The notes: generated by a model not told the origin, from the letters alone. Positions 35,363 to 61,123 are shown, counted from the first letter of the stretch. The stretch: DNA of 64,000 nucleotides from Bdellovibrionales bacterium (GCA_965199935.1 CBDATD010000002.1:128050-192049); one strand, 5' to 3'. Made by a program: numbers and translations.

Positions 35363-36521
35363 ATGTACAAAAATCGAATTATTGATATTTCTGAAGATAA
35401 GAATATCCTCTTTTTTTGGTGTTCGAGGAAGCGGTAAAACAAAGCTTTTAAAACGTCTTTTTCCTTCAGCTCTGTACATTGATCTTTTAGATGAGACTCT
35501 TTATCAAGACTACCTCTCTAATATTGGGAAGTTTTATGAAACAGTCAGTGGTTTTAAAAATGACGGCTTGGTTATTGTGGATGAAGTTCAAAAAATGCCT
35601 AACCTGTTAAATGAGGTTCATCGGCTTATTGAATCTTCTCAGCGGCGATTTATTTTGACCGGATCTAGCGCAAGAAAAATTAAAAGCAGGGGAGTAAACC
35701 TTTTAGGAGGTCGAGCGGGTATAAAGCATCTTCACCCTTTCACTCCAGAAGAGCTGGGAGAGGATTTTAATTTAGATCAAGCTTTGCGTTATGGTTTAAT
35801 TCCCATTGTATGGTCTTCTCATGACAGGGATGACAAACTAAAAGATTATGCTGAAACCTATCTTAAAGAGGAGATAAAAGCAGAAGCTTTAGTAAGGCAT
35901 TTGCCTAGTTTTGTGCGTTTTTTACAAACGGCTGGTTTGTATCATGGGCAGGTTGTCAATATGAGTGCAGTTGCAAGAGAGTCTCAAATTTCAAGAGACT
36001 ATGTGCGTGAGTTTTTCTCTATTTTAGAAGATACAATGCTGGGGTTTTTTCTTCCCGCTTATTATCCAAAGCTTCGTTTGAGAGAGCAAAAGAGTTACAA
36101 ATTTTATTTGATTGATCCGGGTCTAGCGCGTGCTTTAAAGAAAAACTTTGGCCCTGTATCGACTGAGGAGAAAGGATTTCTTTTTGAAGGGCTTATGGCT
36201 CAGCTGTTGAGGACTTATAAAGACTACCGTGGTCTTTGTGAAGATATTTATTATTGGTCTTCTTTAGGGTCAAAACAGACAGAAGTAGATTTTCTTTTAA
36301 AAAGGGGGGAGGAATTAATAGCCATTGAAGCTAAAGCCAAAAATGACGTTTCTTCTCAGGATTACAAGGGGCTTAAAGCTATTGGTGAATTACCGGGTGT
36401 TAAAAGGAGAATTGTAGTTTACTTAGGAAAGACTATAAGAAAAACCCAAGAAGGCATTGAAATTTGGCCCTTTGATTTCTTTTGCCAAAACCTAAAAGAA
36501 AATTTTAAATCTAGTATTTAA
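35363..36521 (+). pseudogene. AAA+ ATPase (DUF4143-type, second subfamily), +1 shift in a T7 run near the 5' end
   Basis: The ATG at 35363 gives MYKNRIIDISEDKNILFF, after which the frame is lost in T7 (35411-35417). Removing one T joins it to GVRGSGKTKLL (Walker A), the frame of track ORF 35382..36521. Downstream are VIVDEVQKMP (Walker B) and TEVDFLL...IAIEAK. This could be a sequencing error rather than a true pseudogene. Confidence 0.7.
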
Positions 36522-45125: not shown

Positions 45126-45134
45126 AGTGTTCAG

Positions 45135-45926
45135 ATGAAGGTAGATTTGACACAATTTGAAGAGCTTTTGGAAGCAGTAAAGAGTTTTGGTATTAGTGAT
45201 TTTTCAAAAATAAAAATTCAATTTGAAAGAGGTGAAGGGTTAGATGTAAATTTAGATGAGATTTTTCCTTCTTCAAGTGAAGAGCTTCTAACTATTTTAC
45301 CGGATGGGTCAGTTAGAAAATCTATCATCTATATTGTGGATATTTCTACATATTATGATGAGACACATAGTTATCCTAAGTTTCATATATATAATTGTAA
45401 GACGATAAAGTGGATGAGAGCTGGTGGGAGAGGACATAGATACAAAGCTTCTAGCAGAGTAGATGGGAAATTCATGCTGATCAAAAATGACAGAAAGTGG
45501 GAAGAAGAATTAAAAATATGTCTTAACTGTCTGAAACATTACAATGATCAATTTGTAAGTATTAAAACAAGAGAAAATTTTTCAATTAAAGAATATATCA
45601 AAAATCCAATAAAGAGTTCTGGATTTTTTGAAAGCTTTGATTTTTGTACTCTTCCAAATGTGTACGCTGAAAATTGGAAATCTATATCAGATTACGTAAA
45701 GAAGAGGTCACATTATAAATGTTCTAAATGCTGTAGGGATTTTTCAAACAAATCTTATAGAGAGTTTTTACACACTCACCACAAGGATGGAGATAAGACT
45801 AATAATACGTTTGGAAATCTAGTTTCTTTATGTATTGAATGCCACTCTCAAGAATATAATCATGGGCATATGAAAAATAGCTTTCAATACAAAAAATATT
45901 TAAAAACTAAAAAGAAGGTAGCATGA
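45135..45926 (+). CDS. HNH endonuclease-domain protein (ZorE-like position/function)
   Basis: The C-terminal HNH/His-Me finger is CSKCCRDF...LHTHHKDGDKTNNTFGNLVSLCIECHSQEYNH. The N-terminal ~190 aa are an unknown domain with PKFHIYNCKTIKWM...CLNCL. It starts 10 nt after the ZorA-like stop. Confidence 0.75.
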   Translation: MKVDLTQFEELLEAVKSFGISDFSKIKIQFERGEGLDVNLDEIFPSSSEELLTILPDGSVRKSIIYIVDISTYYDETHSYPKFHIYNCKTIKWMRAGGRGHRYKASSRVDGKFMLIKNDRKWEEELKICLNCLKHYNDQFVSIKTRENFSIKEYIKNPIKSSGFFESFDFCTLPNVYAENWKSISDYVKKRSHYKCSKCCRDFSNKSYREFLHTHHKDGDKTNNTFGNLVSLCIECHSQEYNHGHMKNSFQYKKYLKTKKKVA

Positions 45927-46675
45927 AGTCTTCTAAAGAATGGATAAGTATTTCAGATATGATGACTGGACTAATGATGGTTTTTCTATTTATTGCTGTC
46001 CTGTATATAGATAAAATTGAAGATAGCATTCGATGTATGGAGCATCCAGAAGAATTTCAGAAAGAAGTAAAAAATTTGATGGAAAGATATGATAACTATA
46101 ATGAACAAATTTATGTTCAGCTTAAAAATGAATTCAATAAAGAGTTAGAAATATGGGATGCAAAATTAGATAGAGAAAATCTCACAATGAGTTTTTCTCG
46201 TAAAATGATCTTTTTGGCTGGGGATACTCGTATCAAACAGAATTTTAAAAAAGTTTTAGATAATTTTTGCCCTAGATATTTTAAGATCTTGTACAAATCT
46301 AAGGAAGATATAAAGGAGATAAGAATAGAAGGTCATACATCCAGAGAGTGGGATGAAGTTTCCAATCGAAAAATAGCTTATTTTAATAATATGGAGCTAT
46401 CACAAGATAGAACGAGATCAGTATTAGAATATTGTATAGCAGAGCGTTTGAGCATTGATGATGAAATTCAAAATTGGATATTGAAAAAAGTTACGGCAAA
46501 TGGTTTGTCGTCTAGTCAACTTAAATGTGATCATACAGATCCTGATGAGTTATGTAAAGCTCAAAATAGAAGAGTCGAATTTCGGGTGCAAACGAATGAA
46601 ACTGCTGTGTTGAAACAAATTAAAGATAAGCTCAATAATTTATTAGAGCAATTAAAAAAGTGTAAAAAAACATAA
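45923..46675 (+). CDS. MotB/OmpA-like stator-anchor protein (ZorB-like)
   Basis: An ATGA overlap joins it to the HNH gene. The N-terminus is WISISDMMTGLMMVFLFIAVL, a MotB-type plug/TM with the conserved Asp. The C-terminal OmpA-like motifs are IRIEGHTS...NMELSQDRTRSV...NRRVEFRV. Confidence 0.75.
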   Translation: MKSSKEWISISDMMTGLMMVFLFIAVLYIDKIEDSIRCMEHPEEFQKEVKNLMERYDNYNEQIYVQLKNEFNKELEIWDAKLDRENLTMSFSRKMIFLAGDTRIKQNFKKVLDNFCPRYFKILYKSKEDIKEIRIEGHTSREWDEVSNRKIAYFNNMELSQDRTRSVLEYCIAERLSIDDEIQNWILKKVTANGLSSSQLKCDHTDPDELCKAQNRRVEFRVQTNETAVLKQIKDKLNNLLEQLKKCKKT

Positions 46676-46850: not shown

Positions 46851-48347
46851 CTAAGACTGCTTCTGTTTATTCTGCTGGTTTGAATCATGATGTATTCTTA
46901 TATTTGATAAGATTAATAATGTGTGGATTATAGCAGTGGTGGTTTTTGAATTTAAACTGTTCTTAGGAAAATGACCATGGCAAATCATATTTCTAAGATT
47001 CCAACCTCTTTGGTCAGTTAGAAGTAACTCAAAATATCTGGGTATATTACTATTGAGCTTAAAAGCTGTAATAAATTTATCGTCTTTCAATAGAGATCCT
47101 AAGGAGCGTAATTGAAAGTTATGAGGTTTATAAATTGTTCCTCCGTTTATTTTTACTAATTCTCTAACAATGGATTCAATCTGAAGTATTAATATTAAAG
47201 TACTTGATATATAATTTCCATTAAAAAAATGTTCTAGTCCTTTTTTTATAATTTGATATCGTTCCTTTGGAAATATAGGAGAAAGAAAAAAATGTTTTAA
47301 AAGGTTTTGAGCAGTTAACGATTTATGAGTTTTCAAAGATTGTAAGCCTAATTCAAGAAAATTTAGATTAATCTGAATTTCGTAATTCATTTGATTAATG
47401 ATATGCCCTTGATTAACAGTACGTTCAGGTGAGTCTTTTTCTGTAGATCCAATTTTATTTATCACTCGTCCTGTATGATCTATCTTTTTTTGAGTTATGA
47501 AAAACTGGAGTGGAGACTTTTGTAACGTTTTTAGCACAATATCCTTAGACCTATTTTTGTCAGGAATAAAGTTTATAGATAAAGAAACTAATGATTCAAA
47601 AAGAGAATTTTGGTTTAATAACGTAGATGTGTAGTTATCGATTTCTTTTCTAGGAATGCTGATAGTTTCATCAAATTTCTTTAATTCTTCTAAAGAAGAT
47701 TGTTGGTATTTACGTATAGCAGGCTCTAATGCTTCCATTTCTCTAAATAGTTTGTATTGATACAATATTATTCTGACTTTTTCTAATAACTCACTTCCCA
47801 CCATTGCAGGGACACTTTTACAATGATGCAAACAGGAATCTTTATAGAGCAATAGTACTTTTCTTAGATTTCTGGTTTTGTTTTTGTACTTGTAGTAAGA
47901 GGATAATCTTGAAATACTTTTCTCAACAGCAAAGAAGTTAAATCTATCTGAATTGTTATCAGAAAAGGTGTTTAATCTTCTTTCTAATTCTTTTATAATC
48001 TCCTTTTCTTGTTCTTTTTTTAGTTGAACCTTCTTAGATAAATTTTTATCTTCAATTAGTAAATCAAATGCATATCCCCATGTGCCAAGTTTATCATCTT
48101 CAGAGTAAGTGTTTTCATATTTTATAAGGGCATCTCTTACATTGAATATCCTTTTTTCATCTGATATAGATATGGCTAGCTTTAAACTTTGTTCTAGCTT
48201 GTCAATTATGGAATGAAATCCTTCTGCAATTAATTTTTTGTTAGATAAGTTTTCATTTTTTAACTTAGATAGTTGTAAAGAAGAATCAATAAATTTGTGG
48301 GCAAAGGATATATTTCGATTTGTTTGTTTTGAAAAAAACCAAGCCAA
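46851..48347 (-). CDS. hypothetical protein with DUF4209-like C-terminus (tentative)
   Basis: ~498 aa, very AT-rich, with a TTG start in the track. The C-terminal segment LLTDQRGWNLRNMICHGHF resembles the conserved R-N-x-x-x-H-G core I associate with DUF4209. This has not been verified by any search. Confidence 0.5.
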   Translation of the reverse strand: MAWFFSKQTNRNISFAHKFIDSSLQLSKLKNENLSNKKLIAEGFHSIIDKLEQSLKLAISISDEKRIFNVRDALIKYENTYSEDDKLGTWGYAFDLLIEDKNLSKKVQLKKEQEKEIIKELERRLNTFSDNNSDRFNFFAVEKSISRLSSYYKYKNKTRNLRKVLLLYKDSCLHHCKSVPAMVGSELLEKVRIILYQYKLFREMEALEPAIRKYQQSSLEELKKFDETISIPRKEIDNYTSTLLNQNSLFESLVSLSINFIPDKNRSKDIVLKTLQKSPLQFFITQKKIDHTGRVINKIGSTEKDSPERTVNQGHIINQMNYEIQINLNFLELGLQSLKTHKSLTAQNLLKHFFLSPIFPKERYQIIKKGLEHFFNGNYISSTLILILQIESIVRELVKINGGTIYKPHNFQLRSLGSLLKDDKFITAFKLNSNIPRYFELLLTDQRGWNLRNMICHGHFPKNSLNSKTTTAIIHTLLILSNIRIHHDSNQQNKQKQS

Positions 48348-48392: not shown

Positions 48393-48971
48393 TCATTTTT
48401 TCCAATAACTTACTGCTTCCAGAGAAATATCCTTAGTATCTGGATTGGTGATAATTTTACCCTCTTTATTCTCAGAGATAAAAAGAGGTTTATAGTAGTT
48501 TTCCCACGTAGCTTGGAATTTATCTTTTTCTATGTTTTTTGGCGGGTGTGCACAATCGTTGCCAGTAAGTCTGACTTCATTAGCCCATTCGTGTAAATCT
48601 TTTGTAATAATTTGTTGATCAAGTAGCCATTTAATTTGACCTCTTAATGTTTCTCCAGTAGCTTTCTTTTTAATACAACAAGATTGTAGTGTTCGACGAG
48701 CTATAACACCTGTTGCTCTATAAGCATTTACAGAAAAACAAAGATAAGCTTCTTTTAAATCTTCTTTAAGAAAATCTGGTGTTTTTTCATTGATTGGCTT
48801 TGGCAACGCTGTTGGATAAGTTTTTATAATCATCCCATCATAGCGGTAAACTAAAAGGAAGAAGTTGCAACTATTACATTCAGAAATATGATATCTACCG
48901 TAATGAGCTCTATTACTCAGGGAAGTGTATCGTCGGCAACTAGGACAATAAATAGAATTTTTATCTGCCAT
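48393..48971 (-). CDS. zinc-ribbon + DUF4145-like protein (tentative)
   Basis: The N-terminal ribbon is CPSC...C..C. The C-terminal pattern is YRATGVIARRTLQSCC...GETLRGQIKWLLDQQIITKDLHEWANEVRLTGNDCAHP, typical of DUF4145 (....R..gN.aaH). It lies directly upstream of 46851..48347 on the same strand. Confidence 0.5.
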   Translation of the reverse strand: MADKNSIYCPSCRRYTSLSNRAHYGRYHISECNSCNFFLLVYRYDGMIIKTYPTALPKPINEKTPDFLKEDLKEAYLCFSVNAYRATGVIARRTLQSCCIKKKATGETLRGQIKWLLDQQIITKDLHEWANEVRLTGNDCAHPPKNIEKDKFQATWENYYKPLFISENKEGKIITNPDTKDISLEAVSYWKK

Positions 48972-49195: not shown

Positions 49196-49208
49196 GTAAC
49201 TTCCAACT

Positions 49209-49245
49209 CTGGACTATAGAGATAAATTTTAGTAAAATACAGAAA
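49209..49245 (+). promoter_or_regulatory. conserved promoter-like module (copy 1), upstream of the TIR gene
   Basis: CTGGACTATAGAGATAAATTTTAGTAAAATACAGAAA contains TGGACT, a 17-nt spacer, then TAAAAT. It is nearly identical to 58896-58932. Confidence 0.5.
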
Positions 49246-49333
49246 GCTCAGCACTGTTGAGAAGCTAGTGAATTGGGATGTTGCTACAATTTCTTAAATT
49301 TGAAGCAATAACGTAACAAACAAGGTTTAAAAT

Positions 49334-50230
49334 ATGAATAATGTAAAAATTCCAAAATTTTTTATGTCGCATCATCGTAAAGATAGGGAATTGTTATCTG
49401 TTTTGAAGAGAGTCTTCTTGAATCATGGTATTGAGTTATTTTTAGCACATGAAGATATACCAGGAGGAGAAGAGTATATTGAAAAAATCAAAGATGAGCT
49501 ACGCAACTGTGATATTTTTATAATTTATGCAAACGATAATTCTAAAAATAGCTCTTTTTGTAATCAAGAAATTGGATGGAGTCTTGTACTCAATAAACCA
49601 TTCATTATAATAGGAGATAAGGATTGGGATCTAATGCCCAAACAGCAGAGTTATAAGTTAAAACCAGGAAAGGAATTTGAATGCTTTTCATCAATAATGA
49701 GAGATAAAAGAACAATTAAAGCAATATCTCAGTTTGCACAATATAAAAAGAAATCAAGTGCTTTAAAGGTTTTAGCGAAAATGAATTATTCAGGTTTTCG
49801 AGTGCATAGCAAAGCACCTTCTAAATTATCAGATAAATGGATACATCTAATTCCTCATGCTTGGAATGATTATTGGTTTTACACAGAATTTGATGTTAAT
49901 TACACCATAAACCGCCAAAAGATAGAACTAAGCTATAAAATAGGCTATCGAGGCCAAATAGGAGGAAATCCTAGTAAAAGCAGTTATACATCTAAGGAAA
50001 TGAGTGAATATTTTTTATGGTTACCGGATAATTTTCTATCTCGACAAACTGATGGCACTGGAGATACGAATGTTGATACAGCTATTTCTATTTTGCTGAG
50101 AGATTGTGAGTATGATGGGAGTTTAAAAAAAGGTTTTGAAAATGAGGACGTCTTTAAAAGGTCACTTTTTCTGGGTGAACTAAATGGTAACAATAAGCTG
50201 GATGAATCACTCTTTGAAGGTATGGATTGA
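49334..50230 (+). CDS. TIR-domain protein with uncharacterised C-terminal domain
   Basis: The N-terminal ~120 aa fit the bacterial TIR pattern: FFMSHHRKDRELL...LFLAHEDIPGGEEYIEKIKDELRNCDIFIIYANDNSKNSSFCNQEIGW, including the conserved Glu in CNQEIG. The C-terminal ~170 aa are unknown. Confidence 0.7.
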   Translation: MNNVKIPKFFMSHHRKDRELLSVLKRVFLNHGIELFLAHEDIPGGEEYIEKIKDELRNCDIFIIYANDNSKNSSFCNQEIGWSLVLNKPFIIIGDKDWDLMPKQQSYKLKPGKEFECFSSIMRDKRTIKAISQFAQYKKKSSALKVLAKMNYSGFRVHSKAPSKLSDKWIHLIPHAWNDYWFYTEFDVNYTINRQKIELSYKIGYRGQIGGNPSKSSYTSKEMSEYFLWLPDNFLSRQTDGTGDTNVDTAISILLRDCEYDGSLKKGFENEDVFKRSLFLGELNGNNKLDESLFEGMD

Positions 50231-50307
50231 GTCTCCAAAGTAGTACGGAAGGGTTAAATGGGGTGGAATAAGGTTAAGAATATTGTTGATTCACCGATAA
50301 GTCTTTT

Positions 50308-50874
50308 ATGAATTTATTAAAATTGATATTTTTCTGGCCAATTTGTATTTTACAATTCATCATCCTATTTCCTATTCATTTAATTACTACTATATTCTTC
50401 AAAAAAGGAGTGTTGGCAGAGCTGGCAAGAAAAAGAGATTTATCAGGCATACACACATTAATTCGGCAAGGGTATGATGTGAATGCACAAAATGCCTTTG
50501 GACAAACTCCTTTACATGGTGTGTTTTTTGATAAGGCACATTTGAGTATCAATTCATATATGACGATGACAGTTTTAAAATATTTAATTAATATTGGGGC
50601 AGACGTTAATATTGTTGATAAAAGAAATTGGTCTCCTTTAATGTATGCTATTAATGCAGATTATACAGATGAATCAATATATTTAATTAACTCTGAAAAA
50701 ATATTACTGAATAAAAGGTTCTATGAAGATCATACAGCTCTTCATTGTGCTGTGATAAAAAATAATTCAAAAATAGTGACACACCTTTTAGAAAAAGGAG
50801 CTGATCCTCATATAAGAGATTCATTAGGTTTAAAACCTATTGATTATTGTAGAAGTAAGAAATCTATTTTTTAG
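50308..50874 (+). CDS. ankyrin-repeat protein with N-terminal TM segment
   Basis: The N-terminal hydrophobic segment is LIFFWPICILQFIILFPIHLITTIFF. There are three or four ANK units (GQTPLHGV..., NWSPLMYAIN, DHTALHCAVIKNNSKIVTHLLEKGADP). Confidence 0.75.
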   Translation: MNLLKLIFFWPICILQFIILFPIHLITTIFFKKGVLAELARKRDLSGIHTLIRQGYDVNAQNAFGQTPLHGVFFDKAHLSINSYMTMTVLKYLINIGADVNIVDKRNWSPLMYAINADYTDESIYLINSEKILLNKRFYEDHTALHCAVIKNNSKIVTHLLEKGADPHIRDSLGLKPIDYCRSKKSIF

Positions 50875-51049
50875 ATAAATGTTCTTCCTTCTAATTGAAA
50901 AAATACTAAAGATTTTCATTATTCGACCGATACAAACTATCAGTGGGAAGAAGGTTAAACATTTTTTTGAAAAAATCAAAAGGAAAGAGAATAAGGAAAT
51001 CTCACTTTTACACTATAACAAATGTTTTAAATAATGCTGAGGTTCAGCA

Positions 51050-51739
51050 ATGATAAATCTTTTAGTTCTTTTTTTAGTCATTGGATTAATTATCATACTC
51101 TGTATTTTTTCTACGGAGAAGAAAATGGCATCCTTTAGATATATTTCTAAAAAAATTAATCTCTTCAAAAAATTTCCATTCAATCTGAAAGTTTTTTTAT
51201 CAAGCTTAAATCTTCAAAAAAAATTAGTATACAAAATTAAATCAAAATATACCTCAACGTCTTCGAGAGACGTTTTTGAATCAATAAAAGAAATAAAGGA
51301 ATATTTATCTATTTTAACGAAAAATGTATCCAAAAAAGATGAAGAAATTGATAGATTAAAAAAGGGGTATGATCTCAAGATTTTCAAAGATTTTTTGAAT
51401 AGATTTTTAAGAGTCTATAGAATAGTGGAGGAGGATGTAGAGTTTTATACAGAAAAGAGTAATAGAGAGATATCTAAAATATTAAATAACATAAAATTTG
51501 GTTTAAAAGAAGCTTTTTTAGATTGTGGATTGGAAGAGTTTCAACCACAGGAAGGGGAAATATATAAAGAGTGTTTTGGACTTTCAGAGAATGTTGAACA
51601 CGTGAATACAGATGATAAAACTAAGGATATGAAAATCGTTAAAGTAAAGAAGAAAGGATTTAAAATGAAAACGTATTGTGGGTACGAGGTTATACGTCCA
51701 GCAATTGTCTCTATTTATAAATATACAGAAAGGAAATAA
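51050..51739 (+). CDS. membrane-anchored GrpE-like nucleotide-exchange-factor homolog (tentative)
   Basis: It has an N-terminal TM (LLVLFLVIGLIIILCIF) and a coiled-coil middle (KKDEEIDRLKKGYDLKIFKDFLNRFLRV). The C-terminal pattern GLEEFQPQEGEIY...IVKVKKKGFKM...EVIRPAIVSIYK parallels the GrpE beta-domain (G.e.i.p.G..FdP...v..v...Gy.....viRpA.V.V). The stop is 3 nt before the Hsp70 start. Confidence 0.55.
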   Translation: MINLLVLFLVIGLIIILCIFSTEKKMASFRYISKKINLFKKFPFNLKVFLSSLNLQKKLVYKIKSKYTSTSSRDVFESIKEIKEYLSILTKNVSKKDEEIDRLKKGYDLKIFKDFLNRFLRVYRIVEEDVEFYTEKSNREISKILNNIKFGLKEAFLDCGLEEFQPQEGEIYKECFGLSENVEHVNTDDKTKDMKIVKVKKKGFKMKTYCGYEVIRPAIVSIYKYTERK

Positions 51740-51742
51740 AAA

Positions 51743-53260
51743 ATGAAAAAATTAGTTGGAATTGATTTAGGAACTACAAATTCTGTTGTTTCATATTTAG
51801 ATGAAATGGGTTCACCTACAATTATTCATAATGACGATGGAGGGAATATCACTCCTTCTGTTGTGCATTTCAGTTCTGCCAATCATTCTATTGTAGGCAG
51901 GGAAGCTAAAAAAGAATTTCCTAAAGAATTCCCTACTACGAATACGCAGACTTTTGCCTTCTTTAAAAGGCATATGGGATCTGATAAAAAAATAACTATT
52001 TTTGAAAAAGAAATTACTGCAACTGTTCTAAGTGGGTTGGTTTTAAAAAAACTTCATGAAGATGCTAAGAATAAATTAGATTCTTCGTTGGAAGCAATTG
52101 TGACAGTACCGGCAAGTTTTTCAAACAAAGCAAGAGAAAAAACATTAGAATCTGGTAAATTGGCAGGGATAGATATTTCAAATATTATTAATGAACCAAC
52201 AGCTGCGGCTTTATATTATGCATATAAATCTGGAAAAGATTTATCTGGTAACTATGCAGTCTATGATCTAGGAGGAGGTACTTTCGATATATCGATTATA
52301 AGGGCATCTGGAAAAGATATCGAAGTACTCTCATCTGAAGGGGTTTTTAATCTAGGTGGTAAAGATTTCGATGACAAACTAATATCTCTTGTACGAGAAA
52401 AATTTAAGAAACAAACTGGAAGAGAGTTAGAGGCAGATGATTATAATTACATAGATGCAGAGGAAGATAAAAAATCATTATCTAAAAGAGATGAAATTAA
52501 TATCTCTTTAGGAAGAGGTTCTGAAAGAGTTACGATAAACATACAAAGGACAGAATTTGAAACTGCCATTTCACCTTTGGTTGCTCAAACTGAAATGCTA
52601 TGCGAAAGTGCTATGGATAAAGTTAAATTGAACACTTCTGATATTAAAGATATTTTTTTGGTAGGAGGTTCAACTCGTATCCCTCTTATTAAATCTAGTG
52701 TTGAAAGAAATTTTAATAAAAATCCATTAACAACACATAATCCAGATGAAGTTGTATCTCTAGGTGCGAGTATTTATTGCGGGTATAAGACGCATAAGTC
52801 CAATCTTAATGTTGTACAAAAAACGTGTATGGAAAAAGTTAATATTCAAGAAATAACTAATCATTTTTTTGGAACAATTGTGATAGACGAGGATATGGGC
52901 CAACTGACCTTAAAAAATGATATTCTGATAGAAAAGGGATCAAAAATACCTTGTTCCATACACAAGATATATCAGACCATCAGAGATAATCAGTCTAAAA
53001 TTGAATGTACAATCACCCAAAGTAGCCACAATGAAACTGATCCTGAATTTGTAAATGTTATATGGCAAGGGGACTTAAGTATACCTACTGGACGACCTGC
53101 AGGTCAACAAATCAGGGTTACATTTTCTTATGATGAAAATCAAATTATGCAATGTTCTTTTTTAGATATATCTTCTAATAGGCAAACGTCTATTGATTTA
53201 AACATGGATAAAGAAAATTCTTCTGTAAAAACAGAAGTTGAAAAATTTTTAGTAGATTAG
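51743..53260 (+). CDS. non-canonical Hsp70-family ATPase (lidless)
   Basis: Actin-fold/Hsp70 motifs are VGIDLGTTNSVVS, TVPASFSNKAREKT, IINEPTAAALYYA, VYDLGGGTFDISI and FLVGGSTRIPLIK. A ~150-aa beta-sandwich-like substrate domain follows (QIRVTFSYDENQIMQCSF), but there is no alpha-helical lid or EEVD tail. 505 aa. Confidence 0.9.
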   Translation: MKKLVGIDLGTTNSVVSYLDEMGSPTIIHNDDGGNITPSVVHFSSANHSIVGREAKKEFPKEFPTTNTQTFAFFKRHMGSDKKITIFEKEITATVLSGLVLKKLHEDAKNKLDSSLEAIVTVPASFSNKAREKTLESGKLAGIDISNIINEPTAAALYYAYKSGKDLSGNYAVYDLGGGTFDISIIRASGKDIEVLSSEGVFNLGGKDFDDKLISLVREKFKKQTGRELEADDYNYIDAEEDKKSLSKRDEINISLGRGSERVTINIQRTEFETAISPLVAQTEMLCESAMDKVKLNTSDIKDIFLVGGSTRIPLIKSSVERNFNKNPLTTHNPDEVVSLGASIYCGYKTHKSNLNVVQKTCMEKVNIQEITNHFFGTIVIDEDMGQLTLKNDILIEKGSKIPCSIHKIYQTIRDNQSKIECTITQSSHNETDPEFVNVIWQGDLSIPTGRPAGQQIRVTFSYDENQIMQCSFLDISSNRQTSIDLNMDKENSSVKTEVEKFLVD

Positions 53261-53276
53261 GAACAGGACCGTATAT

Positions 53277-54404
53277 ATGGAAATAATTTTTATTATCATT
53301 ATAATGTTAGTCTCCACTTTTATTTGGAATGTTTTTATCAATTTCTGTCATACAAGAAGTAATGCTTTTGAAATAGATTTACATATAGAATCTAAAGATG
53401 ATACGCAACTCATAATTATAAACGGAAGAGGCATTATACCATCAAATAAATGTCATGACAATAATCTCATTTTTATATCTACTGTATGGGATATTACAAA
53501 TGGAAAAGAATCTCCTGTTCTATGTTTAGTACCTGAGTTTCAAAAACATGGAATTTTTTATTTTCAAAAAACTGTTCCTATACCTTATGATGCAACTCTT
53601 ATTAAAGAGTGGGTTCCTGTAGGGATTGTTATTCCTGAAATATGCGTTTTCCCATTCTCTAAAAAAAGAAAATTACGAACACGTTTATCACTACTCAATA
53701 CAGAGGGCCAAGTGATAAAAGAATATTCCTCTGAAATAGAGTTTTATAACTCTAAAAAAGGGTATGAAGAGGTTAAAAAAGATAAAATTAAACTATTTAA
53801 AATGGAGCTTCACATATTAATGAATATTGCAATGGCTGATGGAAAAATTGACAATAAAGAAATAGAGTTTTTCACTCAAAAAATTACAACATTTCTAGAA
53901 AACTATGAAGGACAAGAAAAAGAGAATTTAAAAGAGCAATTGAATCTATTATTGAAAAAATCTTACGAACAAATTTATTTTAAAAGAGATAATTTACAGC
54001 ATTTCACTAACTTATTTAAAGAAATTTCTACGGATGCACATAGATATAATTTAATAAAAAGTTGTACTGAAATGATGAGCATAGACAAAAATATTGATGA
54101 AAAGGAATTGAAAATTATTGATAATATATCTAATCAATTAGGGTTGCGATATAACAAAGTAAATGAGTTAAAAGATATTCATATTTTAAAAGGTAGTAAT
54201 GTAGATCCTTCAAATCCTGAGGTGATTCTTGGTATTAAATCTGAATGGAATTACGATAAAATTCGAATGCATCTTAACAAACAGTTTACAAAATGGAATG
54301 CAAGAATGCAGGGGTGTTCTGATGAAAAAGAAAGGCAACAAGTTCAAAATATGTTAAATTTAATTGCAAAAACGAGATTAAAATATGAAAAAAAAGCTGG
54401 ATAA
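53277..54404 (+). CDS. membrane protein with TerB-like domain and C-terminal J-like domain lacking HPD (DjlA-like architecture, tentative)
   Basis: It has an N-terminal TM (IIFIIIIMLVSTFIWNVFINF) and a ~150-aa unknown domain. The TerB-like segment is ELHILMNIAMADGKIDNKEIEFF...YNLIKSCTEMMSIDKNIDEKELKIIDNISNQLG. The C-terminus EVILGIKSEWNYDKIRMHLNKQFTKWNARMQGCSDEKERQQVQNMLNLIAKTR aligns by eye to a J domain, with WNA in place of HPD. Confidence 0.5.
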   Translation: MEIIFIIIIMLVSTFIWNVFINFCHTRSNAFEIDLHIESKDDTQLIIINGRGIIPSNKCHDNNLIFISTVWDITNGKESPVLCLVPEFQKHGIFYFQKTVPIPYDATLIKEWVPVGIVIPEICVFPFSKKRKLRTRLSLLNTEGQVIKEYSSEIEFYNSKKGYEEVKKDKIKLFKMELHILMNIAMADGKIDNKEIEFFTQKITTFLENYEGQEKENLKEQLNLLLKKSYEQIYFKRDNLQHFTNLFKEISTDAHRYNLIKSCTEMMSIDKNIDEKELKIIDNISNQLGLRYNKVNELKDIHILKGSNVDPSNPEVILGIKSEWNYDKIRMHLNKQFTKWNARMQGCSDEKERQQVQNMLNLIAKTRLKYEKKAG

Positions 54405-55521
54405 AAATCAATTAAGTATTGTTCGGTATTCTGAAGATAGATCTTCCAAAGCAAGTTTACCTACTCATTCCGATATACTTACACAATTGAAAAATTCATT
54501 TCTTATGAATCACTTGCCTGTAAATAAAAAACTCACGCCAAAAATATATCAATCTGTGGAGGATTGTCTATTTACTCTGGGGATAGATAGTATGATTCAT
54601 AATGTATCTATTTTTATTTATCAAGATCATGAAGTTAATGCCAAGTGTTTGACAGGATTTAAAAATAATATTATTATTTTACTTTCGTCTTCTCTAGTGA
54701 AGTTTTTTAAACTTGACGAATTAAAGTTTGTCATAGGGCATGAACTGGGTCATTATTTATTTCATCAAAATTCGGTTAAGCAATCCTCCAACCGTAATCT
54801 GGAGAGTTTCATATTGCGTAGAGCGAAAGAAATAACTGCGGACAGGGTAGGATTACTGTGTTGTCAGTCTCTGGATACTTCAATAAAAGCTATGCTAAAG
54901 ATGTTATCTGGGCTTGATGAAAATCATCTGGTATTTAACATAGCCTCTATATTAGAGGAACTAAAAAATGTAGATCCTTCAAATATTCCAATAGAAGAAA
55001 TGTGTGCTTCTCATCCTCCTCTAGCCATTAGATCTAGAGCTCTACTATGGTTCTCTATGGGAAAAGTTTATTTAGACCTTATAGGAAAAGTTTCTACTGG
55101 ATGCTTATGTGAGAAAACTATAGATAGTAGAGTTAAAAACGATCTCACTAAATATTTAGATTCACAATGTTTAAATCAAATTCAAAAAACTAAAAATGAT
55201 TTTAAATTTTGGATATTATCTTTAATTTTTTTAAAAGATCGTACCTTCAGTAAAGAAGAGCAATCGATTATATCAAAAATTTTTGGTCAAGAAAAAATGG
55301 AAAAATTAAAAAACTTTATCTGTTCATCATCAAAAGAACAAGTTATGAAAAGTATTACTCATAATTGTGTTCAATCGTTTTTTTCTTACTTTACAGAAGC
55401 TCCAAAAGAATCAATTTCATACTTAAGAAACCTAGATAATACCATAAAAGAAGAGTTTGGTATTTCAAATAGTTTACCATTTGTGTTGGACAAATGTCCT
55501 GATTTAAACAAATATCTATGA
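54385..55521 (+). CDS. M48-like zinc metallopeptidase
   Basis: It overlaps the upstream gene by 20 nt. The HExxH motif is in FVIGHELGHYLFH, and the downstream third-ligand region is RAKEITADRVGLLCC (M48 pattern E..AD). The C-terminal ~120 aa may be a second TerB-like module (FWILSLIFLKDRTFSKEEQSIISKIFG). Confidence 0.65.
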   Translation: MKKKLDKNQLSIVRYSEDRSSKASLPTHSDILTQLKNSFLMNHLPVNKKLTPKIYQSVEDCLFTLGIDSMIHNVSIFIYQDHEVNAKCLTGFKNNIIILLSSSLVKFFKLDELKFVIGHELGHYLFHQNSVKQSSNRNLESFILRRAKEITADRVGLLCCQSLDTSIKAMLKMLSGLDENHLVFNIASILEELKNVDPSNIPIEEMCASHPPLAIRSRALLWFSMGKVYLDLIGKVSTGCLCEKTIDSRVKNDLTKYLDSQCLNQIQKTKNDFKFWILSLIFLKDRTFSKEEQSIISKIFGQEKMEKLKNFICSSSKEQVMKSITHNCVQSFFSYFTEAPKESISYLRNLDNTIKEEFGISNSLPFVLDKCPDLNKYL

Positions 55522-55600
55522 TAGAATATTTAGTAGGGGAAACTTAGAAATGAAAAAACATAAACATAAGTCAGGTGTACTACAGATGGGTTAGTATCTG

Positions 55601-55885
55601 TCGCAGTTGATGTAGGAGTGTGAGTGGGGTTCGCCTCCTAATTAACTACCGCCGCCGTCATAGTCTATGTGAGGATAAGGCAAATATAGTCTGAATCTAT
55701 CTCCTAATTGGGATTGAATGATGTCAGAGATAGATAAGAAGTCGTCTAAATCAGTGAAGTCATTACAGTTTGTGCGACTTGATAATCTTTCATCAGCTTC
55801 ATAGTAAGGGCAGTCGCCTCCTTCTTCTCCCTCAAGGTCTGAATCACCGCTTCGTCCGTCTGAATCCTGAAAGTTTAAAAATTCA
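55601..55885 (-). pseudogene. remnant R4 of the 3' end of the 61401..62783 gene family
   Basis: The minus-strand translation is EFLNFQDSDGRSGDSDLEGEEGGDCPYYEADERLSSRTNCNDFTDLDDFLSISDIIQSQLGDRFRLYLPYPHIDYDGGGS* (stop at 55642-55644). It is followed by GCGAACCCCACTCACACTCC and a second tail-let, TACATCAACTGCGAC. There is a stop codon upstream and no start codon. Confidence 0.8.
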
Positions 55886-55984
55886 AACTTTTAGAATGAA
55901 TAGAGATTCTCTAAGAAGAGTAATTAGATGTACATATTATTGGTATATTGAATAGTTGTAAAAGAACTAATAAATGCTTGCATT

Positions 55985-56854
55985 TTGTATTTTCACGTGG
56001 TAAATACCCTCTTTTATATGTGTGAGGTGGAAAGTTTGGTCAATTTTGAGGAAATACAAACGTCAGTGGATTGCGACTGCAAAAGAGTGACAGTTACGCA
56101 CACAAAATGTAAATATTCTCGCGAAGAAGATACTCAACCATTAGGGACATCTAAATGGAAAGGTGTGATTACATCACTAGTTACGTGTCTTTTCTTTAAA
56201 TTTGTTCCCATTTCAATTTTCGTTGTTATATGTTTCCCTCTTTCGGACTTTTCGGCAAAATTTGCAATTCTTTTTCCATTGTCCAATTGTTGTGTAGATA
56301 AGTTTGGTGAAGTAGATATGCATAGTTCAAAAATGTCTCAAAAAATAGCTAATTCGCATCAACTTAATAAACATACACCCACCGTTTCCAAGAAATCTGA
56401 ACCTCTGATGAAGGAGGCAAATGAAGCAAATCTTTTGATCAAAGCTATGAAGGATAGAGCTTATATAAAAGCTCGTACATTAATAATAGATGTCGGAGTT
56501 GATGTAAATTTTCAAGATAAGAGTGGAAACTCACCTCTACATATAGCCTCTTTTGATGGGAGCAGGGATATGATTGATTTGCTTCTGGACAATGAAGCGT
56601 CGATGGCTGTTCAAAATAATGAAGGAAATACCCCTTTACATATCCTTGCAAGAGAGGGGTACTATGAGATTATTTCTGAGTTGGGATTTTTAAATGAAGA
56701 AGATATGGAGTGTATTGCAAGTGTAAAAAATACTAAAGGGCATACAGCGTTGGATTTGGCTTATGCCAGTATGGTGAATGAAGAGTATTTTAAGAATTCT
56801 GTATTCGATGACTTATCGTCAATGAGATGTAGTGACATTGCACAATTGGAGTAA
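55985..56854 (+). CDS. ankyrin-repeat protein with hydrophobic N-terminal region
   Basis: The C-terminal half carries ANK units (GNSPLHIASFDGSRDMIDLLLDNEA, GNTPLHILAREGYYEII, GHTALDLA). The N-terminal part has TM-like segments (VITSLVTCLFFKFVPISIFVVICF). The start is uncertain (TTG at 55985, or the internal ATG at ~56319). Confidence 0.65.
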   Translation: MYFHVVNTLFYMCEVESLVNFEEIQTSVDCDCKRVTVTHTKCKYSREEDTQPLGTSKWKGVITSLVTCLFFKFVPISIFVVICFPLSDFSAKFAILFPLSNCCVDKFGEVDMHSSKMSQKIANSHQLNKHTPTVSKKSEPLMKEANEANLLIKAMKDRAYIKARTLIIDVGVDVNFQDKSGNSPLHIASFDGSRDMIDLLLDNEASMAVQNNEGNTPLHILAREGYYEIISELGFLNEEDMECIASVKNTKGHTALDLAYASMVNEEYFKNSVFDDLSSMRCSDIAQLE

Positions 56855-57165
56855 ACTACCGCTTCCTCCGGTGAAGTCTTCGTAGTCGAGATACAGGGGT
56901 GTTGAGAGCGGGGTTGCCTAGCTTCCGCTGCCAGAGCCGTCGTAATCGATACAAGGGTATCCACTGCATTGTGGGGCCAAAGGATGTACTTTACCGCTGT
57001 AATCATCTAAATCTTGAAAGTCATTGCAGTTCGTATTTCCTAATATTTCGTCAGCTTCGTAGTAGGGGCAGTCGCCTCCTTCTTCTCCGTCAAGGTCTGG
57101 ATCACCGCTTCGTCCGTCTGAATCTTGAAAGTTCAAAAATTCTTCTTTACTGGTGTGAAACCTAG
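56855..57165 (-). pseudogene. remnants R5a+R5b of the 3' end of the 61401..62783 gene family (best-preserved copy)
   Basis: R5b (56918-57165) on the minus strand reads KEEFLNFQDSDGRSGDPDLDGEEGGDCPYYEADEILGNTNCNDFQDLDDYSGKVHPLAPQCSGYPCIDYDGSGSGS*. About 150 bp of it are near-identical to 61470-61620. After its stop comes GCAACCCCGCTCTCAACACCCC and then a tail-only copy, R5a (56855-56917, ..YLDYEDFTGGSGS), which abuts the ankyrin gene stop. Confidence 0.85.
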
Positions 57166-57403
57166 TGAAATTTCGAAAAAATGTAAAGAGTTTCACATGA
57201 AAGATGAATTTGACAAGGATATTCAAAAATTAGGTAAAATCAATTTTAGAATAACGTTCCCTATGAGTATTAAAGATCGAAAATAATACATAGATTTTTT
57301 GTATGTAAATAATATATTTTTGAACTATGTTCTTGAGGAGGCACAAAGGGAATAAAGCACTAAGATCAAATCTGTATCTGATACTTCCAGAAGGAGAAAG
57401 CTT

Positions 57404-57910
57404 GTGAAAAGAATTAAAAAATTCAAAAGAAGAAAAACTTATTAGTCAATTCAAGAAAAAATTGTCATTAACTTCTTTTAAAGAAAACCAGAAAAACTTG
57501 TCTAATTATTTAGGTACAATGCTACTTTAAGAAAAATGAAAGGGAGGAGAGGGAGAGCAAGCCTATGCAGAAATTTGCACTCTTCTCAAATTAGGAACTC
57601 ACCATAAAACTTCACATCTGAAGTGGGCTGGTGACCAGCGGGATGGAAACGCTTTTGATGGGATACTGTATTTCGATCAAGACGAACAAAAAGTTGAAAT
57701 TTCTGCATCAATTAACCCGGAAGAAATAAAGGATTATAGAAAAAAGGATGGACATCGAGAGATGACAAAAAGTGTTGTACAATCAATGAAAAAACGAATT
57801 TTTCTGAAGATTTTCTTAGAAAGTATTGGACATCTTGCAAAAATCTAGAGAAGTTTCTTTTGAGGTATTCCCCAATTATAGTAGAAGATTTTGTATATAA
57901 ATTGAGGAGA
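57404..57910 (+). pseudogene. decayed paralog of gene 37615..38394
   Basis: Nucleotide similarity is evident from GAAAGCTTGTGAAAAG (compare GGAAGCTTGTGAGAAG at 37640) through ...ATAGTAGAAGATTTTGTATATAA. The frame from the GTG at 57404 stops after 13 codons, there are multiple indels, and the 3' third is missing. Confidence 0.7.
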
Positions 57911-57965
57911 GGAAAAAGTAGCTCATTTGAACTGTCTATTGATGGTTGCTGCTTTAGGGGCGTAA

Positions 57966-58634
57966 TCAGCTCTCTTTTGGTATCATTTTTAACTCTTTAA
58001 GAAGTTTTTCTTTTACTGCATCATAAACGAAGAATTGTCTTGATAATAGGTCTCTTTTCAAAAATTCCTTATCTTCTGGAATAACAGGAGAGATGTGTTT
58101 TTCAATATTTTGTTCCATTTTTTTGAAATTTAAAAAATCCAATCCAGAAATAGAAGACCATCGTATAAGAAATATAGCATTAAGAATAATTCTCTTATAA
58201 GCTGAGTAAAGTTTCCATACATCTTCTGATAAATAAGGTTCAATTTTATGCTCATTGAGTCCTTCTCTACATTCTTTTTCAATACTTTGAATTATTGGAC
58301 TGAGCCATCTTTCTGTTTCTTGGAAAGCATTTTTCAGTTTTATTTTGTTTGTCTCTTCCAGGGTTTCCCAGTTTTTCAATTTTTTAAAATTCAAATTCTG
58401 CAACCATCCACAAATAGATTCTCCTTGAGAGAAAGTCTTTATATTTTTGTTTATTTGTTCTATGGCATTTAATCTTTTTTTCTTAAGAAGGATATTTTCA
58501 TTCTCTTTGATTCTAATGTTTGATTTGTCCTCTTCTAATTCTTTTTTAAATTTTTGTTCCACATATTTTTTGAGAAACCAACCAAAAGCTGATCCTATTG
58601 TAAAGATTAAAGACATAATTAGTTTTTCAAGCAT
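57966..58634 (-). CDS. hypothetical N-terminally membrane-anchored protein
   Basis: 222 aa with an N-terminal TM (LIMSLIFTIGSAFGWFL). The rest is charged and helical. No recognisable motif. Confidence 0.45.
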   Translation of the reverse strand: MLEKLIMSLIFTIGSAFGWFLKKYVEQKFKKELEEDKSNIRIKENENILLKKKRLNAIEQINKNIKTFSQGESICGWLQNLNFKKLKNWETLEETNKIKLKNAFQETERWLSPIIQSIEKECREGLNEHKIEPYLSEDVWKLYSAYKRIILNAIFLIRWSSISGLDFLNFKKMEQNIEKHISPVIPEDKEFLKRDLLSRQFFVYDAVKEKLLKELKMIPKES

Positions 58635-58895
58635 AAATTTCCGTTCTCAGTTAATTTTAGAGATATTGTATTTGTCGATGGAATATACTCTACTTGCTCC
58701 CTTCATGCCAAGAGCCAAAATGAAAAGAATACTGGCTGTAGTTATGCATCTCTCTAGGAGACACATCATTCTCTCAGCATAAAAATAGTTACTCACATAT
58801 TACATAGTTCTTTTTTTTTGTTGGCAGTATTTAGCTGTAATCAGGGGAAATGTTCCTTTTTTTCTACGAATTAGACGCTCGATAATTGTCGAATT

Positions 58896-58932
58896 CTGGA
58901 CTATAGAGGAAAATTTTAGTAAAATACAGAAA
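58896..58932 (+). promoter_or_regulatory. conserved promoter-like module (copy 2), upstream of gene 58955
   Basis: CTGGACTATAGAGGAAAATTTTAGTAAAATACAGAAA contains TGGACT, a 17-nt spacer, then TAAAAT. It has 2 mismatches to 49209-49245. Confidence 0.5.
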
Positions 58933-59932: not shown

Positions 59933-61123
59933 TCATCTATATTCGTATTGTGAGACGGTACATTGAAGTCTTTGTATTAAGTCATCATAAGTAATTATAT
60001 CAATAATGTTTTTATATTTTCTTTTAATAATTTCAAAATCTTCTTTTTGTTCTAAGTTTAAGTTATTACTTCTACCTAAAACAATCATTGCTCCAGGATT
60101 GGTAATTTTTATTTGACAATTATTTGGCAAATTGTTATTATATTTCTTGTTTAAATAGTCCTCTCCTCGTTTTCCCCATTTGTTTAGATGTAAGATATAT
60201 TTTTCCACTTGCATCACAGTTCCTGAGAGTTCTTTCACTGGACAATAATTTCCCCTGTAATTTGGATTGTCTGGAACAATTTGGTGATCTAAAGGTCTTT
60301 TTATTTCTAAAATATCAATATATCCTTCTGAATCGACCAATAAATAATCTAATTCTCTTTTTTTATTTTCTGTGTAGGAGTCTTTTATTTTGACTTTTTG
60401 GAAAACTTTTATATATTTTGGAAAAATTAAAAGTAATATCTCGATAATTTCTTCTTGCCATTGCTTTTCGTTATAATGGTCTTCTTTACTAAGCATATTT
60501 TTTAATTTTTTTAAAATGACTGAATATTTATCTTTTTCATAATTTCTAAAATTATCTAGTAAATTGAAACCTTGAACACTCTTTTTTTTATTCATATATT
60601 TCTCATATTTATCTTTCACATCTACTCTTGTACTTTCAAAATACTTTGTTAAAATTACGGATAACCTTAATTCACAATATTTTTTCTTTTCTGTTGTATT
60701 TGGAAATTGCTTTAATAAGTCTTTAAAACCTTCGTGAGAAATTGAACTTTTATTAGCTCCTCCTAAAAAAAATGATTCACTAATCAAATTGTCAATATGT
60801 TTAAAAATGGAAATCGTGTAATTTGTCACAAAATATTTTTTCTCTAGTTTAATATCTTTATAGATGTAAAGATTATTAGTAATACCCAAGATTTCTTTAT
60901 TTATTTTATAATATCCTTTCTCAAGTACTCCAAACTTAAATTTATAATCAAGATATTCTGATGTTTTAAATTTTTTAACTAGATTATGCTTTGTAAGATG
61001 AAAGGTCTTATCAAAGCAGACACCTTCATTATTTCGAAATTTATCATTTAGCCAAGTAGGCTCATCATCTGGTAAATATTCTAATATTAAAATATTATTA
61101 TTTTTTACAAATTTGATCATCAT
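59933..61123 (-). CDS. Shedu-like (SduA/DUF4263) PD-(D/E)XK nuclease-domain protein (tentative)
   Basis: 396 aa. The C-terminal third contains RELDYLLVDSEGYIDILEIKRP...QVEKY, matching the D...(E/Q)xK core and spacing I associate with DUF4263. It is a single-gene cassette. Confidence 0.6.
   Translation of the reverse strand: MMIKFVKNNNILILEYLPDDEPTWLNDKFRNNEGVCFDKTFHLTKHNLVKKFKTSEYLDYKFKFGVLEKGYYKINKEILGITNNLYIYKDIKLEKKYFVTNYTISIFKHIDNLISESFFLGGANKSSISHEGFKDLLKQFPNTTEKKKYCELRLSVILTKYFESTRVDVKDKYEKYMNKKKSVQGFNLLDNFRNYEKDKYSVILKKLKNMLSKEDHYNEKQWQEEIIEILLLIFPKYIKVFQKVKIKDSYTENKKRELDYLLVDSEGYIDILEIKRPLDHQIVPDNPNYRGNYCPVKELSGTVMQVEKYILHLNKWGKRGEDYLNKKYNNNLPNNCQIKITNPGAMIVLGRSNNLNLEQKEDFEIIKRKYKNIIDIITYDDLIQRLQCTVSQYEYR

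Follow-up and report, generated by a model that had tools for sequence, protein, structure and literature searches.

A widespread four-gene operon that may couple a membrane Hsp70 machine to a zinc protease in phage and mobile-element conflict

Introduction

Does a compact gene cluster that encodes an Hsp70, a GrpE-like protein, a TerB-type membrane protein and a zinc protease serve ordinary protein folding, quality control at the membrane, or conflict with phages and other mobile elements? The question is raised by a 64,000-nucleotide (nt) stretch of DNA from a Bdellovibrionales bacterium (GCA_965199935.1 CBDATD010000002.1:128050-192049), hereafter the window, whose positions are counted from its first letter. 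Four open reading frames (ORF1-ORF4) lie there between positions 51050 and 55521, all on the + strand, with spacings of 3 nt and 16 nt and then an overlap of 20 nt. A sequence-only reading of the locus had described exactly these genes and gaps, which the coordinates confirm, and had proposed a membrane-tethered Hsp70 module distinct from the housekeeping set, perhaps coupled to neighbouring TIR and ankyrin genes. Here, we show that the four genes recur as a unit in many phyla, and we regard them, on balance, as a horizontally spread operon for a membrane Hsp70 machine coupled to a zinc protease, with phage or mobile-element conflict as the favoured role. The features of the operon, in which aa stands for amino acids and TM for transmembrane, are as follows.

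51050..51739, + strand: ORF1, membrane-anchored GrpE-like protein, 229 aa (Pfam GrpE, TM prediction)
51743..53260, + strand: ORF2, lidless Hsp70, 505 aa (Pfam HSP70, catalytic residues)
53277..54404, + strand: ORF3, adaptor with TM helix, immunoglobulin-like (Ig-like) beta-sandwich, TerB domain and J-like unit, 375 aa (AlphaFold2 model, Pfam TerB)
54216..54398, + strand: J-like C-terminal unit of ORF3 (KWNAR motif at nt 54291-54305)
54385..55521, + strand: ORF4, soluble M48-type zinc metallopeptidase, 378 aa (Pfam Peptidase_M48)
54739-54753 and 54829-54831, + strand: HELGH motif and glutamate ligand E149, zinc site of the M48 peptidase

The four genes form a conserved unit

Loci from other genomes were scored with custom hidden Markov models for the four proteins, and those with room for all four genes (39) were counted as informative. 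The colinear four-gene set was present at 33 of these 39 loci, in at least eight phyla, and the exceptions are rearranged, insertion-sequence (IS)-disrupted or decayed copies. Because the same four genes occur in the same order at so many loci, the gene set is well beyond chance; the survey thus bears out the proposal that the genes co-occur as a unit, and they do so without TIR. Nearly everywhere, the TerB and M48 genes overlap, typically by 8-38 nt. Between the window and one close relative (locus L002), the four proteins diverge in step, with identities of 51%, 72%, 56% and 61% for ORF1 to ORF4, respectively.

Scanning species-representative genomes with patterns from the ORF3-family alignment returned 46 loci, distributed among Alpha- and Gammaproteobacteria, Marinimicrobia, Dehalococcoidia, Thermodesulfobacteriota and Nitrospinota, with further loci in Rhodothermales, Flavobacteriales, Longimicrobiales and Saccharibacteria. 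The loci that keep the gene order belong to Alpha- and Gammaproteobacteria, Marinimicrobia, Chloroflexota, Thermodesulfobacteriota, Nitrospinota, Rhodothermales and other groups, and in Bacteroidota, Gemmatimonadota and Saccharibacteria the set is seen as fragments. By profile search, the ORF3 family comprises 1288, 943 and 536 clusters at 50% identity (E<1e-3, E<1e-10 and E<1e-30, respectively), nearly all of them ~400 aa long. Close relatives of ORF3 are few (10 clusters among 5.8 billion proteins), and their contigs keep the four-gene order. The family of ~500-aa lidless Hsp70s is much larger and reaches ~50% identity in other phyla. We found the same cassette around such Hsp70s in Pseudodesulfovibrio portus, Balneola, Robiginitomaculum and one Rhodospirillales genome, where the TerB proteins are full-length ORF3 homologues with 28-32% identity.

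Several loci depart from the standard layout. Rare fusions place sensor-type tetratricopeptide repeats (TPR) on the adaptor, as in P0205, where TPR is fused to the TerB/J-like protein, or leucine-rich repeats (LRR) on the GrpE-like protein, as in a Rhodothermales locus (L047, 6241-12505) that encodes an LRR/GrpE-like fusion and two TerB/J-like paralogues and has no M48 gene. A further locus (L040, 6753-13753) has an additional Hsp70 gene, which lies on the opposite strand, and the GrpE-like protein of this locus bears gp5-type beta-helix repeats. In P. portus (L004, 11972-17515), the operon abuts a TerB_N-TerB-TerB_C protein, a BrxC/D-like ATPase and a DEAD helicase.

A lidless Hsp70 with an altered J-interface

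ORF2 matches the Pfam HSP70 model (PF00012) with 299 bits. It lacks the lid by design, because the Pfam match stops at model position 509 of 599 and the chain itself extends no further than DnaK-equivalent residue ~519, within the opening turns of lid helix A; the actin-like nucleotide-binding domain and the beta substrate domain are present. The catalytic and allosteric core residues D8, K70, P143, E171, D194, T199 and D201 (E. coli DnaK numbering) are invariant in 117 relatives, in keeping with the initial description of an Hsp70 with all ATPase motifs and a beta substrate domain but no helical lid. Against the NCBIfam DnaK equivalog, ORF2 scores 321 where the cut-off is 648, and we assign it on these matches to the Hsp70 family and not to DnaK. 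The protein is soluble.

The surface that meets J-domain proteins is re-wired. In DnaK, R167 and Q378 receive the aspartate of the J-domain HPD motif (PMC8215388). Among the 117 relatives, position 167 is Y, H, F or N and never R, and position 378 is Y or F. Of the charged contacts with J helices II and III, two have disappeared or changed sign (E206 to R, K or S; D477 to S or A), D211, E217 and P419 are retained, and the hydrophobic linker DVLLLD is replaced by K[IV][KN][VI][SAQ]E, which reads KVNIQE in the window. The so-called GrpE signature loop is 5-10 residues shorter throughout the family.

The lidless family also ends in a conserved C-terminal tail, [DE]I[DEQ]KF[LM]V[DE] (window 53200-53260), which may be a partner-docking motif comparable to the EEVD tail of eukaryotic Hsp70.

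Two membrane-anchored partners

ORF1 consists of an N-terminal TM helix, a coiled coil and a region (aa 77-223) that corresponds to the GrpE four-helix bundle and beta-domain. It matches Pfam GrpE (PF01025) over model positions 25-164 of 165, with 31.4 bits against a cut-off of 25.8, so that the proposed GrpE assignment is upheld at the level of Pfam. GrpE is matched individually by 10 of 26 ORF1 relatives and is the sole specific family that recurs, and the C-terminal family motif CGVE.F.P..GE.Y...FKIAEV...GY.L...EVI.PAKV.I parallels the GrpE beta-domain. ORF1 falls below the NCBIfam GrpE equivalog cut-off (22 vs 194), and hhalign of the ORF1 family with E. coli GrpE aligned the corresponding regions at P=0.056 only. 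Taken together, these comparisons support homology of ORF1 to GrpE through a marginal match. All 40 members of the GrpE-like family examined have one or two TM-type segments, with 2.8 lysine plus arginine residues (K+R) after the last of them (positive-inside rule). Because the TM segments precede the basic residues, the GrpE part is predicted to be cytoplasmic and membrane-tethered.

The AlphaFold2 model of ORF3 (predicted local distance difference test score, pLDDT, 86.1) has a TM helix (residues 2-28), an eight-stranded, Ig-like beta-sandwich (32-158), a TerB domain (163-306) and a C-terminal unit (314-374). The TerB domain had been recognised at the outset and stands on several grounds: a Pfam TerB (PF05099) match of 34.9 bits over a cut-off of 24.4, acidic pairs D188/E195 and D270/E277 that are invariant in the family, and a structural match to 2h5n. 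Foldseek with the complete model returned TerB and generic beta-sandwich matches only. TM segments were predicted in 129 of 144 TerB/J-like proteins, whose bulk is cytoplasmic by the positive-inside rule, and the ORF3 family has an N-out/C-in topology: its TM segment begins near residue 3, preceded by 0.05 K+R and followed by 2.05.

The C-terminal unit of ORF3 is defined by a near-invariant signature, E.LLGI.P.W....I+KHL+.EF.KW[NS].R...L....ER..AQ.ML.LI..AR+KY. Where a J domain has KYHPD, the window protein has KWNAR, and in the corresponding KW[NS]xR motif W is present in 160 of 163 family members and R in 158 of 163. Alignment with J domains by hhalign gave P=0.0073 with 15 sequences and P=0.0038 with 160 sequences (reversed control 0.27; probability 5-9%), in a register that sets the ILGI of the ORF3 family on ILGV and KWNxR on KYHPD. 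Modelled in isolation, the unit is a short helix followed by a long hairpin (helices 8-12, 20-39 and 44-68; pLDDT 89.6). The two highest-ranking Foldseek matches of this isolated unit are J domains, 2dmx (DNAJB8) and 2y4u (P58IPK), with TM-scores of 0.62-0.66, and J domains make up about 10 of the top 44 matches, all with E>0.6. Residue 167 of the Hsp70 co-varies with the motif of its partner: Y167 is matched by KWNNR (16 of 19 cases) and N167 by KWN[GAS]R (7 of 8). This pattern is confounded by phylogeny and is a hint only. These weak, convergent lines suggest that the C-terminus of ORF3 is a J-like helical unit that falls outside the J-domain family. The earlier call of a J-like C-terminus with a replaced HPD is therefore borne out for the loss of HPD and, weakly, for register and fold; support from Pfam, NCBIfam and PDB sequences did not follow.

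A soluble M48 peptidase with an intact zinc site

ORF4 matches Pfam Peptidase_M48 (PF01435) with 56.7 bits (cut-off 20.3), and all 33 relatives compared share H119, E120, H123, E149, D153, R154, H210 and P211. As the HExxH motif, the downstream E149 and the HP motif are all among these residues, the zinc site is intact, and the identification as an M48-type HExxH peptidase holds with H119, H123 and E149 as ligands. Among solved structures, the nearest is that of the HtpX homologue 3cqb (E=6e-4). We considered and rejected a membrane protease of the HtpX, Ste24 or Oma1 type, since a TM segment was found in 0 of 39 ORF4-family members and ORF4 reaches only 25 on the HtpX equivalog model, whose cut-off is 245. 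A conserved C-terminal helical domain of ~130 aa gave a weak match to TerB (P=0.0025, control 0.13), which is a hint only. For the operon as a whole, these data show its anatomy, conservation, topology and genomic setting, along with the intact active sites and the altered J-interface.

N-terminal to the catalytic domain, all relatives carry a near-invariant R-Y-S-x-D segment (window 54385-54450), which could serve as a plug, as a degron or as a site for Hsp70 binding.

Genomic context

The module lies in DNA with a G+C content (GC) of 0.29-0.32, compared with 0.41-0.45 across the first 32 kb of the window, as its description as AT-rich implied. Around it, the low-GC region holds three PDC-S01 ATPases, a transposase, Zorya II, PDC-S39, PD-T7-4, the TIR gene and Shedu, and it is a genuine defence island; the identification of Zorya II, PDC-S39, PD-T7-4 and Shedu in the window gives substance to the setting suggested earlier. 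The relevant features are listed below.

33952-35100, 35382-36521 and 42142-43272 (the last on the - strand): three AAA_14 + DUF4143 ATPases, PDC-S01 paralogues (E down to 7e-46)
38557-39609: YhgA-like transposase amid the PDC-S01 genes
43680-46675: Zorya type II, ZorA2 / ZorE2 (HNH) / ZorB2
46851-48347, - strand: PDC-S39 protein (DUF4209)
48393-48971, - strand: PD-T7-4 protein (DUF4145)
49334-50230, + strand: TIR protein, with TIR in its N-terminal half (TIR_2 44.8 bits, ThsB-like matches)
51007..51035, + strand: promoter-like site TTTACA-17-AATAAT (10 of 12 positions matched), candidate operon start
59933-61123, - strand: Shedu SduA (E=8e-144)

The close relatives of the cassette are similarly placed. 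It adjoins an integrase in L001 and Shedu, restriction-modification (R-M), PDDEXK and Panacea genes in L002, and it lies near AbiEi/AbiEii, a deaminase and an integrase in L056 and near an integrase and an excisionase-like gene in L057. A flank census of two genes on each side at 38 loci (146 genes; raw counts) recovered many mobile-element and anti-restriction genes (rve three times, Phage_integrase, IS240 twice, ArdA three times), R-M genes (HsdR twice and a type III restriction endonuclease, with type I specificity subunits and methyltransferases in the farther flanks) and defence genes (SduA, ZacA/ZacB, SngA/SngB, IetS, SoFic twice, PDC-S11, PDC-S18 and BrxC/D-like). No fifth conserved partner emerged from the 38 loci. 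A link with Shedu was also considered and dropped, as SduA is near the module in the window and in L002 only.

Searches against PADLOC-DB v2.0.0 gave no match better than E=0.01 for ORF1, ORF2 and ORF3, and the database has no model for the operon. ORF4 matched capP (E=2.9e-6) over 40 residues centred on HExxH, and we rejected membership of a cyclic-oligonucleotide-based anti-phage signalling system (CBASS). A prior description of the four-gene operon was likewise not found in the searchable literature, a scope that leaves aside Anantharaman, Iyer and Aravind 2012 on Ter systems. The earlier remark that this is not a nameable defence or stress system thus agrees with both PADLOC v2.0.0 and the searchable literature.

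Proposed mechanism

We propose that ORF3 and ORF1 would anchor a chaperone cycle on the cytoplasmic face of the inner membrane. There, the J-like hairpin of ORF3 would dock on the re-wired J-site of the Hsp70, recruiting it and perhaps triggering ATP hydrolysis, and the GrpE homologue ORF1 would exchange the nucleotide and reset the ATPase cycle. The lidless beta substrate-binding domain would bind exposed segments of bulky or membrane-proximal clients, the signal being aberrant or foreign proteins at the membrane. ORF4, which would be translationally coupled to ORF3, would then cleave the captured or unfolded polypeptide or would be gated by the Hsp70. What is inferred in this scheme is how the proteins contact one another, which of Hsp70 and protease controls the other, what the substrate is and what phenotype results. 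With a partial precedent in the lidless DnaK-like domains that are fused to defence proteases (PMC12642450), an Hsp70 that acts as client sensor and a peptidase that acts as effector is a reasonable hypothesis. A narrower version, in which the operon represents a new anti-phage or anti-plasmid class whose tethered Hsp70 senses occupancy by foreign or aberrant polypeptides and gates the M48 effector, driven by a non-HPD, J-like KW[NS]xR partner that co-evolved with the re-wired J-site, is offered tentatively, and taken as a whole we consider it possible but less likely than not.

Several observations count against a membrane Hsp70 machine devoted to conflict. HPD is found in 0 of 163 ORF3-family members, the J-like unit has no DnaJ match in Pfam, NCBIfam or PDB sequences at E<=10, and in both models KW[NS]xR lies within helix II and not in a loop, with helix IV absent; the unit may merely tether the Hsp70 or act in a way unrelated to it. 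On the side of ORF1, the family profile searched against the PDB reaches only coiled coils and no GrpE structure. Most of DnaK's GrpE-binding loop is lost in the ORF2 family, which suggests that the classical GrpE contact may differ, and the same loss is common to HscA and HscC, both of which seem GrpE-independent. As for the setting, ordinary metabolic or transport genes flank many of the loci, no abortive-infection-type effector is conserved with the module, and relatives of the TerB/J-like protein are absent from IMG/VR viral contigs, PLSDB plasmids and INPHARED phages. Similarly, blastn of the whole module against plasmids returned only a trivial 117-nt Hsp70 match.

Alternative explanations

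Because the operon sits in integrase-flanked, defence-rich islands without fixed neighbours, we favour a conflict role over envelope or stress quality control, a preference that we hold with slightly less than even confidence; an immune role is plausible. The rival that deserves most attention is an accessory role in quality control of the envelope or of membrane proteins, or in tolerance of chemical stress, in which TerB would sense a metal or small molecule, the Hsp70 would extract or hold damaged membrane-proximal proteins and the M48 protein would degrade them. It would account for the DjlA-like architecture (TM, TerB-like, J), with one homologue carrying the automatic UniRef name 'Co-chaperone DjlA', and for hosts that are mostly free-living and largely marine bacteria. 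It would also suit the non-defence flanks in Balneola (catalase-peroxidase, OsmC, MFS) and in the Rhodospirillales genome (transport and sugar genes), and a general stress role has been raised for lidless DnaK-protease fusions (PMC12642450). The M48 protein is closest to HtpX, yet it is soluble, unlike HtpX; the distribution across phyla is patchy, as for horizontally transferred genes; integrases, transposases, ArdA and named defence systems recur next to the operon; and the re-wired J-site isolates its Hsp70 from the general chaperone network. Given this evidence on both sides, we judge quality control possible but on the unlikely side.

We give far less credence to the two other rivals. That the four genes would belong to a larger conflict system together with the TIR and ankyrin genes upstream of them, and perhaps the downstream ankyrin gene, with TIR as effector, had been raised on first inspection; the genes are adjacent and co-directional in the window, the TIR domain is real, and a 44-nt repeat encloses the whole 9.7-kb block (49202-58932). 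Elsewhere, neither the four closest relatives nor the 38-locus census shows a TIR gene adjoining the cassette, an ankyrin gene is near it only once, 7 kb off in one close relative, and the four-gene set is complete and conserved without either. In the window itself, a 175-nt gap that holds the promoter-like site at 51007..51035 splits the upstream ankyrin gene from ORF1. Since TIR and ankyrin genes are absent next to the cassette at other loci, they are most simply read as neighbours or separate island cargo and not as module parts; the proposed coupling fails, and a TIR-dependent system seems to us very improbable. Scarcely worth entertaining is an ordinary DnaK/GrpE chaperone set or its decaying duplicate. 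The top family matches are indeed the DnaK and GrpE models, yet both equivalog scores fall well short (321 vs 648 for DnaK, 22 vs 194 for GrpE), the lid is missing, the co-chaperones are TM-anchored, and the operon is in a 30% GC island of a 43% GC genome, all of which sustains the view that this is not the housekeeping dnaK-grpE set. Decay is at odds with active sites and family motifs that are strongly conserved in hundreds of clusters. As dnaK is reported in 98.9% of bacteria (PMC11019930), a canonical dnaK is expected elsewhere in the carrier genomes.

Comparison with known systems

E. coli DjlA combines a TM segment, a TerB-like domain and a J domain and recruits DnaK to the membrane. ORF3 shares with it the N-terminal TM segment, the TerB-type domain and a C-terminal helical unit at the J position, and the proposed module resembles the DjlA-DnaK pair in that an Hsp70 would be tethered to the inner membrane. 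In contrast, DjlA has a canonical HPD and works with housekeeping DnaK, whereas the ORF3 family lacks HPD and appears to have a private lidless Hsp70 with altered J contacts. The NCBIfam DjlA equivalog scores 17.6 bits on ORF3 against a cut-off of 162, and for the TerB part only. Beyond DjlA, ORF3 has the Ig-like beta-sandwich, and the operon adds its own GrpE and M48 protease. The HscC-DjlB/DjlC and HscA-HscB pairs are alike in having a divergent Hsp70 that co-evolves with a dedicated, partly membrane-bound co-chaperone, a deleted GrpE-signature loop, a sporadic distribution and probable horizontal transfer. Both HscA and HscC retain a lid, though a shortened one, and work with HPD partners, apparently independently of GrpE; unlike them, ORF2 lacks the lid altogether, has a partner without HPD, and comes with a GrpE homologue and a linked protease of its own.

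In E. coli, the circuit of DnaK/DnaJ/GrpE, sigma32 and FtsH lets chaperone occupancy decide whether a target is degraded. The proposed module could be likened to this circuit, in that chaperone occupancy would gate proteolysis, or to a split FtsH, with ATP-driven unfolding or holding and a zinc metalloprotease at the inner membrane, as an analogy only: FtsH is non-homologous, its motor being AAA+ rather than Hsp70 and its protease M41 rather than M48.

The nearest conceptual precedent is a set of lidless DnaK-like domains fused to EACC1-cysteine-protease defence modules, for which sensing of misfolded proteins without refolding has been suggested (bioRxiv 2025, PMC12642450). These fusions are alike in linking a lidless Hsp70 to a protease in a conflict-type setting. 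They differ in being single proteins with a caspase-like cysteine protease, a pore-forming EACC1 and a domain ~50% identical to DnaK, and in having no GrpE, TerB/J-like partner or membrane anchors, whereas in our module each part has its own gene, the protease is an M48 metalloenzyme and a death effector cannot be recognised. The string 'terb' in PMC12642450 denotes terbium and not TerB. Predicted conflict systems centred on the GAP1-N2 GTPase likewise encode HSP70, GrpE and a J-type protein, DnaJ-FNIII, together (Kaur et al. 2020, PMC7159879); they occur mainly in Actinobacteria and Firmicutes, and neither the GTPase and the FNIII-DnaJ fusions on their side nor the TerB and M48 links on ours are shared. 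The Hsp70-like units of CoCoNuT systems are ATPase-degenerate and fused to McrB or McrC, unlike ORF2. DnaK derivatives of this kind were called unexplored in a 2026 review.

Significance

The operon is apparently a widespread, undescribed variant of specialised Hsp70 systems with a non-HPD partner and an obligatory M48 protease, and we consider it a credible candidate for a defence module within known defence islands that is missed by current detection tools. One large group of DnaK derivatives (~500-900 clusters at 50% identity) hereby gains a testable mechanism and a defined set of partners, namely a lidless Hsp70, an HPD-less co-chaperone-like protein with a co-changed Hsp70 J-site, a membrane GrpE and an always-attached protease. 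If the proposal is true, it would show how far evolution can re-engineer the J-domain/Hsp70 interface, it would provide an Hsp70 hard-wired to proteolysis without AAA+ partners, and 'chaperone occupancy' would join the known infection sensors. Some carriers are available in culture (Pseudodesulfovibrio portus, Parahaliea maris, Alcanivorax sp. DP30 and Wenzhouxiangella sp.), and experimental work is therefore feasible.

Other features of the window

Two pairs of direct repeats lie around the module, which the sequence-only reading had described as flanked by remnant repeats. The 44-nt pair (91% identical; 49202-49245 and 58889-58932) does bracket a 9.7-kb block that contains, in order, the TIR gene, an ankyrin gene, the four-gene module, a second ankyrin gene and an ORF at 57966-58634. 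Each copy sits just upstream of a + strand ORF (49334 and 58955) and has a promoter-like site inside it, and the repeat may act as a promoter common to both ORFs or may mark where an inserted cassette begins and ends. The 102-nt pair (92% identical; 55783-55884 and 57041-57142; no Rfam match), on the other hand, encloses the downstream ankyrin gene (55985-56854) alone, and for this pair the description does not stand. Promoter-like sites in this AT-rich region are not above the shuffled expectation in number, so that the one taken as candidate operon start is a pointer only. Rfam gave no match between 48.9 and 59 kb, and there is no tRNA within the window.

The C-terminal half of the TIR protein (aa 160-279) resembles the N-terminus of PtuA / PDC-M01A ATPases, and no ThsA-like partner lies near the TIR gene in the window. 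Matches of the ankyrin genes to Legionella effector models were set aside, as they reflect the repeats only. Finally, the ZorA-like gene contains a perfect 180-nt in-frame tandem duplication (44129-44488; 2.0 copies, 100% identical) in its coiled-coil tail, which would add 60 residues to the tail and, because the copies are identical, is very recent.

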